From: Chrysomallon squamiferum | Taxonomy: Eukaryota > Animalia > Mollusca | Assembly (NCBI GenBank): GCA_012295275.1 | Contig: CM022676.1 | Coordinates: forward strand, 12,648,001-12,712,000 | Length of the DNA: 64,000 nucleotides | Direction: 5' to 3' | Part shown: positions 15,365 to 57,320 of the stretch, one piece after another | Numbering within the stretch: position 1 is the stretch's first letter | Layout of the letters: each line of letters opens with the position of its first letter | Notes under the pieces: model-generated | Database searches by the model: none | The model's input: the letters and a program-made list of their open reading frames with translations, nothing else | Told to the model about the DNA's origin: nothing | Translations under genes and position numbers: made by a program

Positions 15365-15431
15365 ATGTCAAACGCTTGGAGAGTATGTGCGGCGGTTGTG
15401 TTATTTTTCAGCCGATTCGGTATTATTTCAG
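15365..15431 (+). CDS. Gene A exon 1, signal peptide MSNAWRVCAAVVLFFSRFGIIS(G)
   Basis: accATG start, hydrophobic core, phase-1 donor CAG|gtatta compatible with exon 2. Identical copy at 57320-57254. Confidence 0.75.
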
Positions 15432-54700: not shown

Positions 54701-57320
54701 AAAACAATAAAAACACCATTGGCAAAAAAAAATAAAAATAAAAAAAAAATAAAAAAAAAACAGGTTTGGACCACGTGGACCATAAGGAAGCAGCCAAAAA
54801 AAGGAACAACAACAGCAGCAAAAAAGAAACAACATCAGAAGCCAAAAAGAAACAACGACAGCAGCCAAGAGCAGAACAACCAGGACGGCAAACAACACAG
54901 ACCCGGTGATGGCTGAGAGATTGTGCCGGATATCACGGGGGGCGGATTGCGGATGCGATACATCCGTACCGACTCGTTACGATCCGATATGCTGGACACT
55001 CCCTTGTGTCCTGCAATCGTGGCGAGAATCCATTCTTTTCCCTACCCAAAACTCTTTTCTGCGACGGACACGCCCGCTGACCTGTCAGAAAGCGTGCCCG
55101 TCGCAGACGTGCTTCACAACAGCTTGCTCTGATTAGCACGTTAATTTTTTTCCATTCCATTCCAATAATAATAATAATAATAATGGTATGATAATAAACT
55201 GAAATTTATGTTTTATTTCACAATGTCATTATACTTGATGAAGACAATTCAGTAAATTGTCTGCAAATACTTGGTAGTTTTATTTTTTAGTGAATTACAC
55301 AGTATACAGGATCAGCAACAAACTATGAACAGGTAAATATCAATTACTTTATTTTTATAAGTCAAGAAATCTGATGTCAGTGGATCCATAACCCAAGAAA
55401 TAAACTAAGGGTCATCAATTATAAAATTCAAAGTACAGATAGATTTGGTTGATATGAGTTGTTTCAGGTTGTAGGTACAAGTTGTCTTGATTAAAAGGTA
55501 TCTTGTACCGATGACAAGTGAATGCTGTTTGGAACAAGTAATACAAGAATGTCTTCTTGACTCTGGGAAGAGATGGTTAGAAATTATACAATATTTATGA
55601 ACATAAGTTAGCAGTGAAAATGTTTCAGTATTCAATCAAAATCAGCACTAGGTCATACAAGACAGGCACATTTTATCAAAAACGGTTTCTGTATTTTTAG
55701 TTCTGAAACATACTTGTCCCAAATTTGAAAAAATATCCCCATTACCGTAAGAATACTTTCTAATGAGAGGCCATATAATGTTTGAAACCATTGTCGCATT
55801 AACTAAAGAGGGTACCATGAACTTGTTTTATATTGGAAAAAAGGAACTTAAAAACAGATAACCAACAGATGAAAATATATTTTCAATTTATTATTCTGTA
55901 TTGACAGTTTAACAACACTGTGAAATGGAAACTATGACAAAACGACAAATAATGATAATCACCATTTACTCATTACTATTAGTATGAGCACAAGTTTTGA
56001 AGCTGTGAACATGCATTTTGACATTTTACCCCATTGTTGACTTGTCAAAGTCTTTTCGTAGGTTTAATAATATAATAATACCATGCCTAGATAATTTCAT
56101 TATATAAATCCATTTCCAGTCTTATGTAATGGGATACATGCAACAAACTAATGATTACCTATAGCAAAAAATATAATAATAATAAAAGATGTATTATAAT
56201 TACAAGTTAGAATCACATGAATTATGTATGTGATGAAAATAATAACTGCATGCAGCAAAAGGTCACCCTATTTTTGTGATGTGTAATCACTTTTTTTGAA
56301 AGAGGTTTCCTCATTTAAGCTTCTGTTTCATTATCAATTTTACGCATTTTTCCAAAATAACAAATATCATGATGTAGTCTGCATATTGAGCTTCATCTAC
56401 ATATTCAATTCTTGTATGAGAATCAACAGACAAGTTTACTATTTCAAAAAAGTGTTCTGTGACTAAGGTAAGCTTATTCAGGTCTTTAAATCATAATTTG
56501 AATATAATGCCTTTCTCTCATGGTCTGCCAAATTTCATATAATTATTTAAGGTAGCGGATACTTAATTTGGGGCGTTCTCAGCAAATGATGTAGCCATGG
56601 CAATTATTGTTATTATGGATATCTGAGAAGATCAATGGTTCATTGTTTGTGTGGTGCGATAATATTTTCTTTTTGATAATGCTGATTATGAACTGTGTCA
56701 GTAGCAAATTAGATTGTTATAACTGTTTGAGATCTGTATAATGAAGACATAAGGCAAATCTTATTCATTAATTAGCTTATAAAAAATGTTTGCCAAATAC
56801 TTGAAAAAGTCATGGCCTCTACAATTCATCCAAAGTTTCATCTTGAAAAATGATCTTTTTGTATAATGGTTTAACTTCTAGTGATTTTTTTAATTCAAAT
56901 ATAACTAAGATGTAAGGTAACATTCAAGTTAATTAGATTTGAAACTATATCTGCTTTCTGATAAAAGTTATATGTAAGTTTATAGGAAAATCTTATTTCT
57001 GAAATTTTTGTCACATACCTTACCTACATTACATGAATACTTATACATGCATCAACTTTTTGAAACTAAATAGGACGGTAATAACTTAATTGATGTACAA
57101 GGAACAATACTATACAATGCAGAAAAATAATCTGATCAGGTGAACATTAATTAACTATCAATATTTAATATTATTATTATACTATTATAATTAAGTATTA
57201 TAGCAGTTGCCTTCATTAGTATTATTTAATTTACAATGATACAACCGTAATACCTGAAATAATACCGAATCGGCTGAAAAATAACACAACCGCCGCACAT
57301 ACTCTCCAAGCGTTTGACAT
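36685..57320 (-). CDS. Gene B: IgSF type I receptor (SP-7 Ig-FN3-TM-short tail with 2 ITAM-type modules), ~953 aa, spliced; paralog of gene A
   Basis: Exons (minus strand): 57320-57254, 47359-47054, 44675-44337, 43683-43420, 43053-42736, 42389-42093, 41288-40992, 40079-39441, 37900-37763, 37677-37579, 36782-36685. Total 2862 nt, open to TGA. Exons 1-9 have exactly the same lengths as in gene A. Confidence 0.85.
37091..37333. mobile_element. hAT-type MITE between the two ITAM exons of gene B
   Basis: TIR caggggtcaccaac / gttggtgatccgtg; 8-bp TSD tactaaag / ttctaaag. Confidence 0.8.
37579..37677 (-). CDS. Gene B exon 10, ITAM module 1
   Basis: ttttaaag acceptor, gtaact donor. ENKPPETTYEGLQQNRETTQYSRIEMYENLRQT. 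Confidence 0.85.
37763..37900 (-). CDS. Gene B exon 9, transmembrane segment
   Basis: DLEEKTGSNSLLGAAVGGAVGSVTVIVVIVILVLSLRRRGHFSRKS; ttacag acceptor, gtaatt donor. Confidence 0.9.
38187..38330. mobile_element. Tc1/pogo(Tigger)-like terminal fragment
   Basis: TA followed by cagtagtaccttgacttacgag; the second TIR was not found. Confidence 0.4.
39441..40079 (-). CDS. Gene B exon 8, Ig-like D7 plus FN3
   Basis: 639 nt paralog of 24524-25162. Confidence 0.92.
40857..40942. repeat. (AAT)n(AAG)n compound microsatellite, gene B intron 7 only
   Basis: Direct inspection; absent from the gene A intron. Confidence 0.95.
40992..41288 (-). CDS. Gene B exon 7, Ig-like D6
   Basis: 297 nt paralog of 23688-23984. 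Confidence 0.92.
42093..42389 (-). CDS. Gene B exon 6, Ig-like D5
   Basis: 297 nt paralog of 22600-22896. Confidence 0.92.
42736..43053 (-). CDS. Gene B exon 5, Ig-like D4
   Basis: 318 nt; translation identical to gene A. Confidence 0.92.
43420..43683 (-). CDS. Gene B exon 4, Ig-like D3
   Basis: 264 nt paralog of 21334-21597. Confidence 0.92.
44337..44675 (-). CDS. Gene B exon 3, Ig-like D2
   Basis: 339 nt paralog of 20437-20775. Confidence 0.92.
47054..47359 (-). CDS. Gene B exon 2, Ig-like D1
   Basis: 306 nt, same splice sites as gene A exon 2, about 13 aa differences. Confidence 0.9.
48932..50408 (+). CDS. LINE ORF1 (gag-like nucleic-acid-binding protein), one frameshift in the A9 run at 49216-49224
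   Basis: CGHCQKWGHITNQC, CSFCGGNH, CANCQGPH zinc knuckles. The N-terminus (MATKN...) joins in frame if one A is removed. Confidence 0.85.
50405..53281 (+). CDS. LINE ORF2: apurinic endonuclease plus reverse transcriptase
   Basis: QWNAKG, ICIQETW, GDFNCH, SDHHPI (APE); GPDKI, YRPITL, QSGFR, DIEKAFD, GIPQGSVISP, FADD, KFLGV (RT). Confidence 0.95.
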   Translation: MNKNKTKTNSNNHLQTLHDKHAKNTGLSVLQWNAKGLHSTGHGDELLHFLASTTNTPDIICIQETWLGHHNKNNKTTKTFTVPGYQSHYVNRYNSTRGGIMTLVKQDIPYTKLNQAKVHANIEILSITIHNNNQNIDIINIYSPPTPALHTIQTQDLNKIITTNNKVIIVGDFNCHNTLWGGSTDDSPGIVLEDFLEQNQLVCLNDGTFTYTSDINGGQTAIDVTFTSKDIAALSEWQVLDELNSDHHPILTNYNSKNTFSDRSIFTPKWNFNKADWEGFYTACRNINTQNSNDIDAYRASLTNTIHAIAIRYIPKTRKCTGKISTPWCTERIENKCKERNKYRRQYKKDRNHSTHEKYKISKKEVSNLILTAKQEHWELFCNNINHKTSVKDMWAKVKNIQGKKPHRINTLGKTNIAFTDKQKADLLSQTFAKSSSNSNFPLKFAKKQLDNQAIGEQSADTENRTYNQLFNISELKYALKNKKSTATGPDKISYTILQHLPDETLLVILELYNTIWTTGKIPTNWKHAECFSLPKPHKDHSLPNSYRPITLTSHMCKTFETMINTRLNQHLNDNNLISKFQSGFRKKHSTNDQITRLHTSINQSFRKSKKVIAVFLDIEKAFDMVWREGLLIKLINNNIKGNMFNFIKDFINNRSIAVKVNGHTSEKTTIENGIPQGSVISPTLFNIYINDIVTALDRQDNDRNPPKEPINTALFADDCAFWRAGRSTAAIQKQIQKDLNNINDWALKWGIKISLSKTTCLLFNKKSDNSKITLNIDNNFITQTKTFKFLGVTFDSQLNFRCHIYNIIASCKKTINLLKLISGTSWGANESTLILIHKACILSKLDYGATAYSNAPKLYLKKLDIIQSSALRVIGHLPNSTPSDSLLSEYSIQPLKYRRKLQLLKYNLKIHTLNTDHPVKDLVPDEQRIGQLFKSHSLLLSNFPTTASDNRKGNRNR
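53395..54300 (+). CDS. LINE ORF2 C-terminal part: RNase H and CCHC finger (separated from RT by two +1 frameshifts)
   Basis: IYTDGSK, AELVAI, FSDSLS, WLPAHVGILGNELAD; CSCGLSETMKHYLFHC. Confidence 0.92.
   Translation: MAAANDHYNQHTHIYTDGSKNPDNGRVGFAFIAQDHTNKPTCIQFGRIRNHLSVYTAELVAIIRAMLWVKHNNNKRTVIFSDSLSSVISIQTGSSSRPDLLSKIQQLHEEIQHNNKEVTIEWLPAHVGILGNELADHYAKESLTIKDEDICTDIHYGINEIVSIAAKHYDKQWQNEWNNTKNKWHLNIKPLAKTPKITLANKLYNNNLTKVRIGYSNNLNAILYKHNIITSPNCSCGLSETMKHYLFHCPNFAKERQALCNTLEELKIEFTLQHILAPNVKDRELVLAAVTNYILKTKHKL
57254..57320 (-). CDS. Gene B exon 1, signal peptide (identical to gene A)
   Basis: Reverse complement of 15365-15431 including the donor site. Confidence 0.75.

Follow-up and report, generated by a model that had tools for sequence, protein, structure and literature searches.

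Genes A and B, two convergent genes in the analysed window (the whole 64,000-nt stretch of DNA), appear to be paralogous type-I receptors of the immunoglobulin superfamily (IgSF) whose ectodomains were recently homogenised and whose conserved tyrosine tails differ. We consider it moderately probable that they form an inhibitory/activating pair within a larger multigene family, as predicted from their sequences. Nearly the same ectodomain joined to different conserved tyrosine tails makes such a pair likely. If true, the paired-receptor principle, best known in vertebrate innate immunity, would extend to a mollusc lineage.

Locus and gene structure

The genes lie in an inverted duplication of ~10 kb whose two arms are 90–99% identical; 15067–25270 (+) and 57621–39335 (−) align as collinear blocks at 90.9–96.2% identity. 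Both arms carry IgSF genes, convergent, with 11–15 exons and complete ORFs, and their ATGs, at 15365 (gene A) and 57320 (gene B), are the exact limits given in the first-pass annotation. Canonical AG/GT signals flank 11/11 introns in the 12-exon core model of gene A and 10/10 in the 11-exon gene B, where all frames are open. We take the inverted duplication to be genuine, as first observed. The best protein matches, from the gastropod Gigantopelta aegis, agree with the earlier view that this is an invertebrate genome. The extracellular and transmembrane (TM) exons of gene A are as follows:

15365..15431 (+): exon 1, ATG and signal peptide MSNAWRVCAAVVLFFSRFGIIS, donor phase 1
17785..18090 (+): D1, Ig-like by its Cys...Trp-x-Cys pattern only
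20437..20775 (+): D2, C2/I-set Ig, above cutoff in Pfam for C2-set_2 (27.9 bits) and I-set (27.1 bits)
21334..21597 (+): D3, Pfam Ig_3 at 20.6 bits, short of its cutoff (30)
21964..22281 (+): D4, C2-set Ig, Pfam C2-set_2 27.4 bits
22600..22896 (+): D5, Pfam Ig_2 and Ig_3 at 19.8 bits, below cutoff
23688..23984 (+): D6, Ig, Pfam Ig_3 35.2 bits
24524..25162 (+): D7 + FN3, Pfam I-set 25.8 bits, fn3 26.1 bits
25444..25581 (+): TM exon, phase 1/1, no charged residue in the TM

The proposed ectodomain of seven Ig domains and one FN3 is thus borne out above Pfam cutoffs for D2, D4, D6, D7 and FN3, whereas D3 and D5 score below them and D1 has no Ig match in Pfam. Identity with Gigantopelta protein P0005 is 42% for D1 and 55.7% for D6; D7 + FN3 shares 56–59% with five Gigantopelta proteins. 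The exons of gene B and two further elements of the locus are:

57254..57320 (−): gene B exon 1, leader identical to that of gene A
47054..47359 (−): gene B D1, counterpart of gene A D1
44337..44675 (−): gene B D2, counterpart of gene A D2
43420..43683 (−): gene B D3, counterpart of gene A D3
42736..43053 (−): gene B D4, counterpart of gene A D4
42093..42389 (−): gene B D5, counterpart of gene A D5
40992..41288 (−): gene B D6, counterpart of gene A D6
39441..40079 (−): gene B D7 + FN3, counterpart of gene A D7 + FN3
37763..37900 (−): gene B TM exon, no charged residue in the TM
37579..37677 (−): gene B ITAM-like exon 1, E-x2-YEGL-x8-YSRI-x2-YENL
36685..36804 (−): gene B last exon, two alternative acceptors
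48803..54300 (+): non-LTR retrotransposon in gene B intron 1, with ORF1, APE-RT ORF2 and RNase H
57653..58999 (−): partial third copy, a D1 exon (ORF 58653–59006) and ~1 kb of the next intron

The retrotransposon (Pfam RVT_1 2.9e-41, Exo_endo_phos_2 2.4e-24, RNase_H 5.5e-15) is antisense to gene B and sits in a 7.7 kb stretch that gene A lacks. The third copy adjoins the upstream region of gene B, is 95.9% identical to gene A at 17779–19119 and has no leader of its own. The window also contains a 200-N gap (61941–62140).

Divergence between the copies

The leader is indeed shared (0/67 nt of exon 1 differ), and 793/842 ectodomain residues match (49/842 differ; 94% identity). Differences amount to 8 residues in D2, 5 in D3 and 20/213 in D7 + FN3; D4 was described as identical and D5 and D6 as nearly so, and they differ at 0/106, 2 and 1 residues, respectively, the single change among the 318 nt of the D4 exon being synonymous. 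Together, the D4–D6 exons differ at 8/912 nt versus 145/4911 in introns, 3.4-fold less (p = 1e-4), with pN/pS of 0–0.47. The D1 exon, at 19/306 nt versus 2.95% in introns, is 2.2 times more diverged (p = 0.004) and carries 15.2 nonsynonymous and 3.8 synonymous changes; overall pN/pS is 0.89. Both copies are under constraint and D1 is accelerated. D1 has diverged more than any other domain (13/102 residues) and is the likely ligand-binding end, so a common ligand is doubtful.

The TM exons (83.3% identity over 120 columns) are homologous but older. The claim that the cytoplasmic exons are unrelated therefore needs qualification: the tails are distinct, but the TM exons are homologous, and gene A exon ii shares a 12-residue Tyr–Tyr spacing with the ITAM unit of gene B.

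Cytoplasmic tails

The tail region of gene A comprises established and candidate exons:

28000..28056 (+): candidate cassette exon t1, ENDLYYTSSNEGVRNIQLP, phase-1 AG/GT
28600..28665 (+): candidate cassette exon t2, VLEDNVIYHTNN..., phase 1/1
29708..29842 (+): candidate Lys-rich cassette exon (i), phase 1/1, weakly similar to the Lys-rich linker in Gigantopelta P0029
30158..30190 (+): micro-exon of 33 nt, DDKIPLHQSSR, with an RNA contig joint
30473..30570 (+): exon ii, GDTYENV-x8-YAKA-x-YNEN, a degenerate ITAM-like unit and a YxN motif
30706..30888 (+): last exon (iii), two ITIMs (LLYVGI, VEYVSI), acidic PLPD end, stop

The predicted ending LLYVGI...VEYVSI was located at 30736–30822 (+), with the ITIM tyrosines 23 residues apart. 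Exons ii and iii match the P0029 tail at E 1.4e-27, and the micro-exon peptide corresponds to DKMPLNQAARG in the same protein. The first tail model did not include this micro-exon, so gene A has at least one exon more than predicted; the three candidates would come in addition. The P0029 tail found t1 by local tblastn (54.5% over 22 aa, E 0.025), and a P0029 repeat matched t2 weakly, where the acceptor polypyrimidine tract is strong and the donor is GTGAGT. Because its tail retains the YxN unit and other tyrosines, gene A need not be purely inhibitory.

Both ITAMs claimed for gene B exist as motifs, YEGL-x8-YSRI at 37654–37607 (−) and YECL-x8-YTNL at 36768–36721 (−), but reading the second one in frame requires a weak acceptor. 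Splicing to the strong site (36804) puts it out of frame, with a stop at 36692; from the weak AG (start 36782, 22 nt further in) the exon reads YECL-x8-YTNL-x2-YANL to a stop at 36685. ITAM-like exon 1 scores 16.7 bits for Pfam ITAM against a cutoff of 22.2, matches no other Pfam family, and is 47–48% identical to each of two tail units of P0005. The second region is a DNA duplicate of that exon (z = 16) and has no Pfam ITAM match.

Conservation and transcript support

Six-frame translation yields 19 ITAM patterns versus 11.2 ± 3.7 in shuffles, and 7 tandem ITIM patterns versus 4.0 ± 1.9. Bare motifs are near chance in this AT-rich window; the weight rests on exon context and conservation. A HMMER search of 1.84 billion representatives with the gene A ITIM exon returned 21 proteins with E ≤ 1e-3; the top one is from Gigantopelta (2.6e-19, 68% identity). 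Named homologues come from seven mollusc species, both gastropods and bivalves (Magallana gigas K1QER3 has the module), and are labelled "uncharacterized" or wrongly named. Across an alignment of 19 sequences, the two ITIM tyrosines are the only invariant columns, and the +3 positions hold I, L or V. The ITIM module is ancient in molluscs. The ITAM-like unit recurs in annotated Gigantopelta aegis P0002 and P0005, which retain all three tyrosines and L/I at +3.

Gigantopelta P0029 joins Ig6-Ig7-FN3-TM to a gene A-type ITIM tail and is identical to P0005, which has the ITAM-like tail, at 310/334 positions of ectodomain and TM (93%); the two part immediately past the TM exon. The pairing of ITIM and ITAM-like tails on a near-identical ectodomain is thus seen in Gigantopelta as well. 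Automated names are as uninformative as anticipated, relatives being called hemicentin-like, syg-2-like, titin-like or CD22-like.

Transcript support consists of RNA contigs, one with a spliced joint, over A-type tail exons. Cover by RNA contigs from runs X8 and X9 is confined to 30159–30189, 30472–30510 and 30703–30875, with zero depth in the tail introns and 3′ flank of gene A; candidate exon (i) has no RNA contig cover. The GT..AG joint 30190→30473 occurs in one RNA contig (run X9, depth 11.6), which differs from the window at 2/31 nt. At 30761 and 30796 the ITIM-exon RNA contigs agree with the family majority, and past 30875 they diverge, so they possibly come from paralogues and not from gene A itself. 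In DNA runs the ITIM exon is multi-copy (contig depth 160–362 versus ~45 in flanks). DNA contigs of run X1 span the gene A tail region continuously at a single-copy depth of ~45, and those of X5 carry other letters at 20/421 nt.

Proposed mechanism and alternative explanations

We hypothesize that ligand binding would lead Src-family kinases to phosphorylate the tail tyrosines. The gene A ITIM pair, with its 23-residue spacing, would then engage an SHP- or SHIP-type tandem-SH2 phosphatase and dampen the signal; YxxL-x8-YxxI of gene B would bring in a tandem-SH2 kinase of Syk type and so switch on the cell, likely a haemocyte. As the TM of gene B has no charged residue, it would signal via its own tail, like CEACAM3 and FcgRIIA, rather than through an adaptor. 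The similarity of D2–D6 may be held by gene conversion, with D1 diverging under selection. What survives of the original proposal, a paired ITIM/ITAM immune or allorecognition system, is the common ectodomain and the ITIM and ITAM-like tails, both conserved in a second genus; the sub-cutoff ITAM match and the doubtful common ligand weaken it. Allorecognition is probably not the preferable interpretation, given that the snail is solitary.

Alternatively, A and B could be adhesion or morphogenesis receptors of nephrin/SYG-2/NCAM type, their tyrosines being docking or endocytic YxxPhi sites (Grb2, Nck, AP-2) and not parts of an opposed immune pair, which we judge rather unlikely. The Ig-repeat, FN3 and TM architecture suits adhesion receptors, NCBI names among relatives include syg-2-like, L1-like and Dscam-like, gene A has a YENV (YxN) motif, and YxxL/I is compatible with sorting signals too. 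A profile dominated by P0005 matched SYG-2 (2.2e-11), DSCAM, Robo, contactin and NCAM in the PDB; its top match, however, was CEA (8.9e-30), with FcRL5 and CD22 also found. The family is multi-copy and evolves fast: duplicates stand in tandem or inverted, evolution is concerted and D1 is accelerated. Distal domains are ~28–30% identical between genera versus ~55% for proximal ones, unlike single-copy conserved adhesion orthologues, and the sole residues invariant across molluscs are two tyrosines with ITIM-type flanks.

A decaying or silent gene B, leaving one working partner and no functional pair at the locus, is improbable. Such decay would fit the 7.7 kb insertion with a LINE in intron 1, the last exon's strong acceptor giving a frame that lacks the second ITAM, the overall pN/pS of 0.89 and RNA contig support falling on A-type tail exons; antisense LINEs in introns are, however, mostly tolerated. 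Frames stay open and AG/GT signals intact in all 11 gene B exons, D4–D6 exon divergence is 3.4-fold below that of introns, and the first ITAM-like unit is intact with either acceptor. As for the second unit, its ORF still runs to the homologous stop with a perfect motif, which suggests that the change is very recent, that the assembly contains an indel or that the weak acceptor is used. We regard it as very improbable that the inverted arrangement arose in assembly, with two haplotypes, or paralogues from elsewhere, stitched head to head. Identity of 95–99% is within the allelic range of other DNA runs (20/421 nt in X5) and the window holds the 200-N gap at 61941–62140, but the copies are set apart by the 7.7 kb insertion, by intron lengths, by a TM exon with 83% identity and by tail exons that are unrelated, homologous Gigantopelta ectodomains bear both tail types, and X1 DNA contigs run continuously over the gene A tail region at ~45.

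Comparison with known receptors

In the vertebrate pairs CEACAM1/CEACAM3 and FcgRIIB/FcgRIIA, the activating receptor signals through a tail of its own (see also PMC5112662, PMC2832619). These pairs resemble A/B in being neighbouring genes with near-identical ectodomains, ITIM(s) in one tail and an ITAM or ITAM-like motif in the partner's own tail, a TM without a charged residue and a fast-evolving membrane-distal domain; gene conversion maintains their ectodomain likeness, as proposed for A/B. Unlike them, A/B have seven Ig domains and FN3 instead of 1–4 Ig domains, belong to a protostome lineage, and have a TM exon common to both genes; no sequence relationship was detected between the A/B tails and vertebrate tails. 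Gene A, in addition, has a degenerate ITAM-like/YxN unit that the CEACAM1 and FcgRIIB tails do not, and the A/B functions are predicted. Independent evolution of the pair is plausible.

CD22/Siglec-2 and PECAM-1 combine 6–7 Ig repeats with ITIMs and YxN (Grb2-type) motifs in a multi-tyrosine tail, their tandem ITIMs lying roughly 20–30 residues apart. Gene A shares the long Ig repeat, ITIMs, their spacing and YxN at the level of motif and architecture only, no significant similarity being found between its tail and theirs; unlike them it has FN3, and the resemblance as seen here does not include the V-set sialic-acid-binding D1. Nephrin, SYG-2 and Sns share with A/B a long series of C2/I-set Ig domains, a single FN3 after it, TM and a tyrosine-bearing tail. 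Their tail motifs differ from the ITIM and ITAM-like units of A/B, whose family, in contrast, is multi-copy, lineage-specific and rapidly diverging.

Two oyster proteins set a precedent within molluscs, being, as summarised in their sources, IgSF type-I receptors with an Ig (+FN3) ectodomain and an ITIM or ITAM tail, like A/B: CgNCAM1 (three Ig, FN3, TM and two ITIMs), a CgSHIP2-binding suppressor of inflammatory factors (PMC11841013), and CgIgIT2 (five Ig, TM and ITAM; review PMC11999971). According to these descriptions, on which the comparison rests, both are single genes not presented as a one-ectodomain pair. The inhibitory role of CgNCAM1 via an SH2 phosphatase was shown by experiment, whereas that of gene A is only predicted. 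Botryllus FcoR (PMC12582321) and Hydractinia Alr (PMC9546547 / bioRxiv 2022.03.04.482883) are reported as ITIM/ITAM multigene families of invertebrates which, like the A/B family, are clustered, fast-evolving and split into ITIM- and (hem)ITAM-bearing members; tail motifs of FcoR3 and FcoR4 are swapped between alleles or splice forms. As those reports describe them, they belong to other phyla, have ectodomains unrelated to A/B and act in allorecognition in colonial animals, whereas A/B belong to a solitary mollusc, and their tails are swapped from one convergent gene to the other behind seven-Ig ectodomains that are 94% identical.

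Gene models and ectodomain similarity

Stop-to-stop open reading frames, combined with a scan for phase-1 AG/GT sites, gave models for two convergent genes in this AT-rich metazoan DNA (GC 26–43%). Some 5.8 kb separates their 3′ ends (30888 and 36685).

Gene A, + strand, ATG at 15365, end at 30888: leader, D1–D6, D7+FN3, transmembrane (TM) and tail exons; core model 992 aa; AG/GT at 11 of 11 junctions
Gene B, − strand, ATG at 57320: the same eight ectodomain exons, TM exon 37900–37763, ITAM-like exon 37677–37579, last exon; AG/GT at 10 of 10 junctions

The gene B reading frame encodes 953 or 958 aa. 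D2, D4, D6, D7 and FN3 pass the curated Pfam cutoffs for Ig or FN3 domains, D3 and D5 match below cutoff, and the Pfam search of D1 returned no Ig match. D1 nevertheless keeps the Cys...Trp-x-Cys pattern and is 42% identical to D1 of a Gigantopelta relative; the basis for a putative Ig fold in D1 is this Cys/Trp pattern and homology to P0005, a Gigantopelta aegis protein. An AlphaFold2 model of D1 from a 4-row alignment was discarded (mean pLDDT 43).

The two ectodomains are very similar and lie on separate, clustered genes, as in paired receptors. The first-pass annotation had described an identical leader, an identical D4 and differences of 1–2 aa in D5 and D6, which the counts below confirm. 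Its account of the two genes holds overall, with the tails of both corrected: gene A gains a micro-exon and the frame of the last exon of gene B is revised.

Table. Differences between genes A and B.
Leader: 0/67 nt
D1: 13/102 aa
D2: 8/113 aa
D3: 5/88 aa
D4: 0/106 aa
D5: 2/99 aa
D6: 1/99 aa
D7+FN3: 20/213 aa
Whole ectodomain: 49/842 aa (793/842 identical)

Divergence is unevenly distributed. Across the D4–D6 exons, 8 of 912 nt are changed, whereas the six introns from D1 to D7+FN3 carry 145 changes in 4911 nt (Fisher p = 1e-4); pN/pS in these exons is 0–0.47. The D1 exon, on the other hand, differs at 19 of 306 nt, 2.2-fold above the introns (p = 0.004), with 15.2 nonsynonymous and 3.8 synonymous changes. 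The overall pN/pS between the genes is 0.89, on small counts. From the contrast between exons and introns, together with pN/pS, we read the stalk as probably under purifying selection in both copies and the distal domain as apparently accelerated.

Duplication history

Most of the 38 inverted repeat pairs of at least 100 nt in the window belong to one large inverted duplication, in which A 15067–25270 (+) and B 57621–39335 (−) align by blastn as collinear blocks at 90.9–96.2% identity. A 7.7 kb stretch (about 48.2–55.8 kb) is present in B only and missing from A. It contains one of the following elements, and the second lies directly upstream of the promoter region of gene B.

48803–54300, + strand: nearly intact non-LTR retrotransposon, antisense in intron 1 of gene B
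57653–58999, − strand: third, partial copy (orphan D1 exon plus about 1 kb of the following intron), 95.9% identical to A

In the retrotransposon, ORF1 (425 aa) has a zinc knuckle, ORF2 (986 aa) has APE and RT, and an RNase H ORF of 318 aa lies in a different frame; Pfam finds RVT_1 (2.9e-41) plus the APE endonuclease and RNase H domains. A fragmentary second copy of the same type lies at 9300–11020 (+), upstream of gene A.

A-like residues are mixed with B-like ones in the protein encoded by the orphan D1 copy, a mosaic suggestive of gene conversion among the copies. No third leader exon was found in the window. A 200-N assembly gap occurs at 61941–62140, about 3 kb past the orphan copy.

The TM exons of A and B are homologous (83.3% over 120 aligned columns), with a divergence far older than that of the ectodomain, and similarity of the flanking DNA ends about 100 nt past the FN3 exon. 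The picture is of two apparently older paralogues that differ in their tails; a recent duplication or gene conversion would have affected their 5′ 10 kb.

The tail of gene A

ITIMs follow the consensus [S/I/V/L]-x-Y-x-x-[I/V/L] and are cytoplasmic, downstream of the TM segment. Gene A had been said to end in two of them, LLYVGI and VEYVSI, and this is borne out: the reading frame of the TM exon continues into both across AG/GT junctions. The last exon (30706–30888) reads GAKHGRNKDG-LLYVGI-DFCNTQPSKQVHKTEDK-VEYVSI-DWNKKAEPLPDEDDKQTEPKT-stop, with the two ITIM tyrosines 23 residues apart.

Read evidence on this tail comes from Logan contigs placed on 29500–31500, from the runs X1 (DNA), X5 (DNA-like), X8 and X9 (both RNA). 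The RNA runs cover only 30159–30189, 30472–30510 and 30703–30875, with zero depth in the introns and 3′ flank, whereas X1 covers those throughout. A single 68-nt contig from X9, at depth 11.6, splices 30190 to 30473 across a 282-nt GT..AG gap and thereby reveals a micro-exon (30158–30190; 33 nt, phase 1/1) that keeps the frame and was absent from the first-pass model. Among the Logan contigs on 29500–31500, none bridges the next junction (30473–30570 to the last exon) or TM to tail. The 12-nt loose end of the spliced contig has six one-mismatch matches in the window and none in the gene A tail region. Two X5 "joints" (30215 to 30327 and 30342 to 30986) were dismissed as structural or unitig noise, being without GT..AG and from a run that also covers introns.

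The expressed copy may not be gene A itself. The spliced contig has two other letters in 31 nt, and the contigs on the ITIM exon diverge past 30875; paralogues, or an allele of another individual, may thus be the source of the tail-exon RNA. At 30761 and 30796 the window has G but all four runs, DNA and RNA alike, have C, so that the ITIM exon would encode Ser for Cys and Gln for Glu; the commonest form of this exon thus differs from the one in gene A. X1 contigs inside the exon are short (50–73 nt) and have depths of 160–362, against 41–49 for flanking contigs, and X5 has the same contrast. Summed depth is not a copy number, and per-contig depths are only a rough sign, but they point to a multi-copy exon, perhaps in a family of some 5–15 members as a rough estimate.

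A mollusc-wide ITIM module

With the ITIM exon as query, HMMER run in full on 1.84 billion representatives returned 21 proteins at E ≤ 1e-3, three of them at E ≤ 1e-10. A word-based search among longer proteins had matched none of four candidates, a blank that the 21 HMMER matches show to be a limit of sensitivity. Ten homologues were looked up and eight could be named: one each from Gigantopelta aegis, Haliotis cracherodii, Ylistrum balloti, Argopecten irradians, Magallana gigas and Mercenaria mercenaria, and two from Ruditapes philippinarum. All eight are called "uncharacterized" or carry evident misnomers.

The alignment comprised the window exon and 18 of the 21 matches; P0009, P0019 and P0028 were omitted (several short repeated stretches). 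The only invariant columns in these 19 mollusc sequences are the two ITIM tyrosines, with G10, L11, F18 and P47 near-invariant. Both motifs have I, L or V at +3 throughout; at −2, motif 1 has L and motif 2 has V (peltospirid-type), T or N, with T, which is ITSM-like, in most bivalves. The module is usually preceded by a GDxYEN unit. From this conservation, we take the last exon of gene A to be a conserved mollusc cytoplasmic module, putatively of ITIM + ITIM/ITSM type. The exon had no match among PDB sequences at E ≤ 10. Its best score in the ESM Atlas was 0.88, to an unnamed mollusc cluster; HGAL, at 0.76, is a lead only.

P0028, a 544-aa Ig-domain protein with a weak match to the ITIM exon (E 8.6e-4), has three LxYAxVEF...VEYAxV units, which look like a comparable bidentate tail made of repeats; it is perhaps a remote analogue of the module.

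The tail of gene B

The ITAM consensus is (D/E)xxYxx(L/I)x6-8Yxx(L/I). After the TM exon, gene B reads ENKPPETT-YEGL-QQNRETTQ-YSRI-EM-YENL, and the exon 37677–37579 fits the consensus (E-T-T-YEGL-x8-YSRI), its spacer of 8 being the upper limit. The Gigantopelta proteins P0002 and P0005 have two or three units of the form YEGL-x8-YS[QK]L-x2-YQNL after a homologous TM segment, and P0005 is 47–48% identical to the gene B exon (tblastn). ITAM (PF02189) is the sole Pfam family matching this exon, at 16.7 bits (E 0.0099), below the gathering score of 22.2 bits, and for this reason we use the term "ITAM-like"; P0002 and P0005 score 18.3 and 14.9 bits.

Gene B had been credited with two ITAMs, a claim that stands for the first unit as an ITAM-like one and is weakened for the second. 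At the DNA level the last exon of gene B duplicates the first unit (z = 16 relative to shuffled sequence), and the PF02189 search found no match in it. From its strong acceptor (polypyrimidine tract plus CAG, start at 36804) it reads DVASQTLRTDNT, then leaves the ITAM frame and terminates at 36692. The only route to EQTTP-YECL-x8-YTNL-x2-YANL-KKSDK-stop is through a weak AG lying 22 nt inside the exon (start at 36782). Gigantopelta has DDAPQTGDSDRT-YEGL at the equivalent place, and by this comparison the last exon seems one base out of register between its two parts. A genuine, recent frameshift would explain the shift, as would an indel in the assembly or use of the weak acceptor. The first unit is unaffected by this choice. 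An (AG)68 microsatellite lies just 3′ of the stop codon, at 36497–36633.

Gene A has a unit of its own, GDTYENV-x8-YAKA, with the same 12-residue Tyr–Tyr spacing as the ITAM of B but with V and A at +3. That the ITAM-like tail arose from this older unit is speculation, as BLASTP shows no significant similarity between the two tail types. DNA alignment of the tail exons of A and B gave nothing above shuffles (z −0.9 to 0.7).

Relatives in Gigantopelta

The D7+FN3 exon matched five Gigantopelta aegis proteins at 56–59% identity (5 matches at E ≤ 1e-3 among 509 candidates), and a further search with one of the five gave 4 matches among 7993 candidates. Automated names of the nephrin-like or hemicentin-like kind had been anticipated, and the relatives are indeed named titin-like, L1-like, Dscam homolog, syg-2-like, hemicentin-1-like and CD22-like. 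Identity between the genera is about 55% in the proximal part (D6, D7, FN3) and only about 28–30% in the distal domains.

One relative, P0029, is an N-terminally partial model of 585 aa with Ig6-Ig7-FN3-TM and a long tail, which ends ...GDKMPLNQAARGDVYENV...DGLVYVGIDF...VEYMSIDWNKKAQPLPD. This tail matches several stretches of the gene A region.

30473–30570 and 30706–30888 (second and last tail exons): E 1.4e-27, local tblastn
30158–30190 (micro-exon): 7 of 11 residues match
28000–28056: candidate exon, phase-1 cassette, weak match
28600–28665: candidate exon, phase-1 cassette, weak match
29708–29842: candidate exon, phase-1 cassette, weak match

P0029 and P0005 are identical at 310 of 334 residues (93%) from Ig6 through TM and diverge immediately after it; BLASTP between their tails, ITIM in the former and ITAM-like in the latter, is not significant. 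The pairing of one ectodomain with two tail types thus recurs in a second genus.

Interpretation as paired receptors

Bare ITAM and ITIM motifs are common in the window DNA: the ITAM pattern occurs 19 times against 11.2 ± 3.7 in shuffles, and the tandem ITIM pattern 7 times against 4.0 ± 1.9. The argument is carried by exon context and splice phase, together with conservation and the Gigantopelta models. A conserved nephrin orthologue would be another reading of these genes. Their likeness to nephrin and SYG-2 consists of architecture and a moderate PDB match only, and both the multi-copy depth of the tail exon and the distal identity of 28–30% between genera argue against it.

We consider the paired-receptor reading well supported structurally and by conservation, with function as a prediction only. 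The motif content of the tails fits opposite signalling, yet A also has a YxN unit and B has the frame problem in its second unit. A common or overlapping ligand, a further mark of paired receptors, is doubtful here: D1 differs at 13 of 102 aa and D7+FN3 at 20 of 213, whereas D4–D6 are almost unchanged. The bidentate ITIMs of gene A would recruit a SHP- or SHIP-type phosphatase, and the ITAM-like unit that gene B carries itself would recruit a Syk-type kinase. Vertebrate activating receptors include CEACAM3 and FcgRIIA as well as the adaptor-dependent KIR-S, LILRA and Siglec-14. Neither TM segment of A and B has a charged residue, and gene B is for this reason likened to CEACAM3 and FcgRIIA, to which it is nearer than to the adaptor-dependent group.

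Paired activating and inhibitory receptors are regarded as a hallmark of vertebrate innate immunity. As judged from their sequences, A and B would be an independent, mollusc-lineage case of paired ITIM and ITAM-like receptors. Such a locus, with its ectodomain homogenised by gene conversion, its fast-evolving distal domain and its ITIM versus ITAM-like tails recurring in a second genus, would mean a repeated origin of the design from an ancient SH2-based toolkit.

We also hypothesize, more broadly and tentatively, that an ancient, uncharacterised mollusc ITIM/ITSM module is opposed, in peltospirid-type snails, by a lineage-specific ITAM-like tail on one gene-converted seven-Ig ectodomain, forming a true protostome paired-receptor family independent of the vertebrate KIR, LILR, CEACAM and Siglec pairs, with D1 diversifying for microbe or symbiont discrimination. 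As a whole we rate this as possible but on the doubtful side. The nearest annotated relatives are from an endosymbiont-bearing vent snail (peltospirid genome paper), which makes receptors of this type candidates for symbiont tolerance versus pathogen attack. The unannotated mollusc-wide ITIM module is a possible handle on inhibitory receptors of oysters, clams, scallops and abalone.

A precedent exists in the oyster. CgNCAM1 (3 Ig + FN3 + TM + 2 ITIMs) binds CgSHIP2 and restrains inflammatory factors (PMC11841013), a mollusc case of an ITIM receptor recruiting an SH2 phosphatase. CgIgIT2 is described in a review as a 5-Ig receptor with an ITAM (PMC11999971). Outside vertebrates, comparable receptor families are described from a tunicate and a cnidarian (Hydractinia Alr); in Botryllus FcoR genes, ITIM and hemITAM are swapped between alleles or splice forms (PMC12582321). 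The literature searched held no description of a mollusc receptor pair with one common ectodomain, and "immunoglobulin", "ITIM" and "ITAM" have zero occurrences in the main texts of two peltospirid genome papers.

Further elements of the locus

Two fragments, probably from another family member, lie in the interval that separates the 3′ ends of genes A and B.

35224–35472, + strand: FN3-like ORF (Pfam fn3, E 5.7e-4, below cutoff)
35465–35600, + strand: D4-exon-like fragment, 136 nt, 88% identical to part of the D4 exon

Long simple repeats occur in introns, such as (AAG)n/(AAT)n at 40847–40957 and (TTA)19 at 42653–42710. PMC7736800 reports an expansion of 251 "H-2 class II A-U alpha chain-like" genes that only Gigantopelta has; Pfam C1-set is listed among the precomputed domains of the database matches P0004 and P0006, and the expansion might overlap the Ig family of genes A and B.
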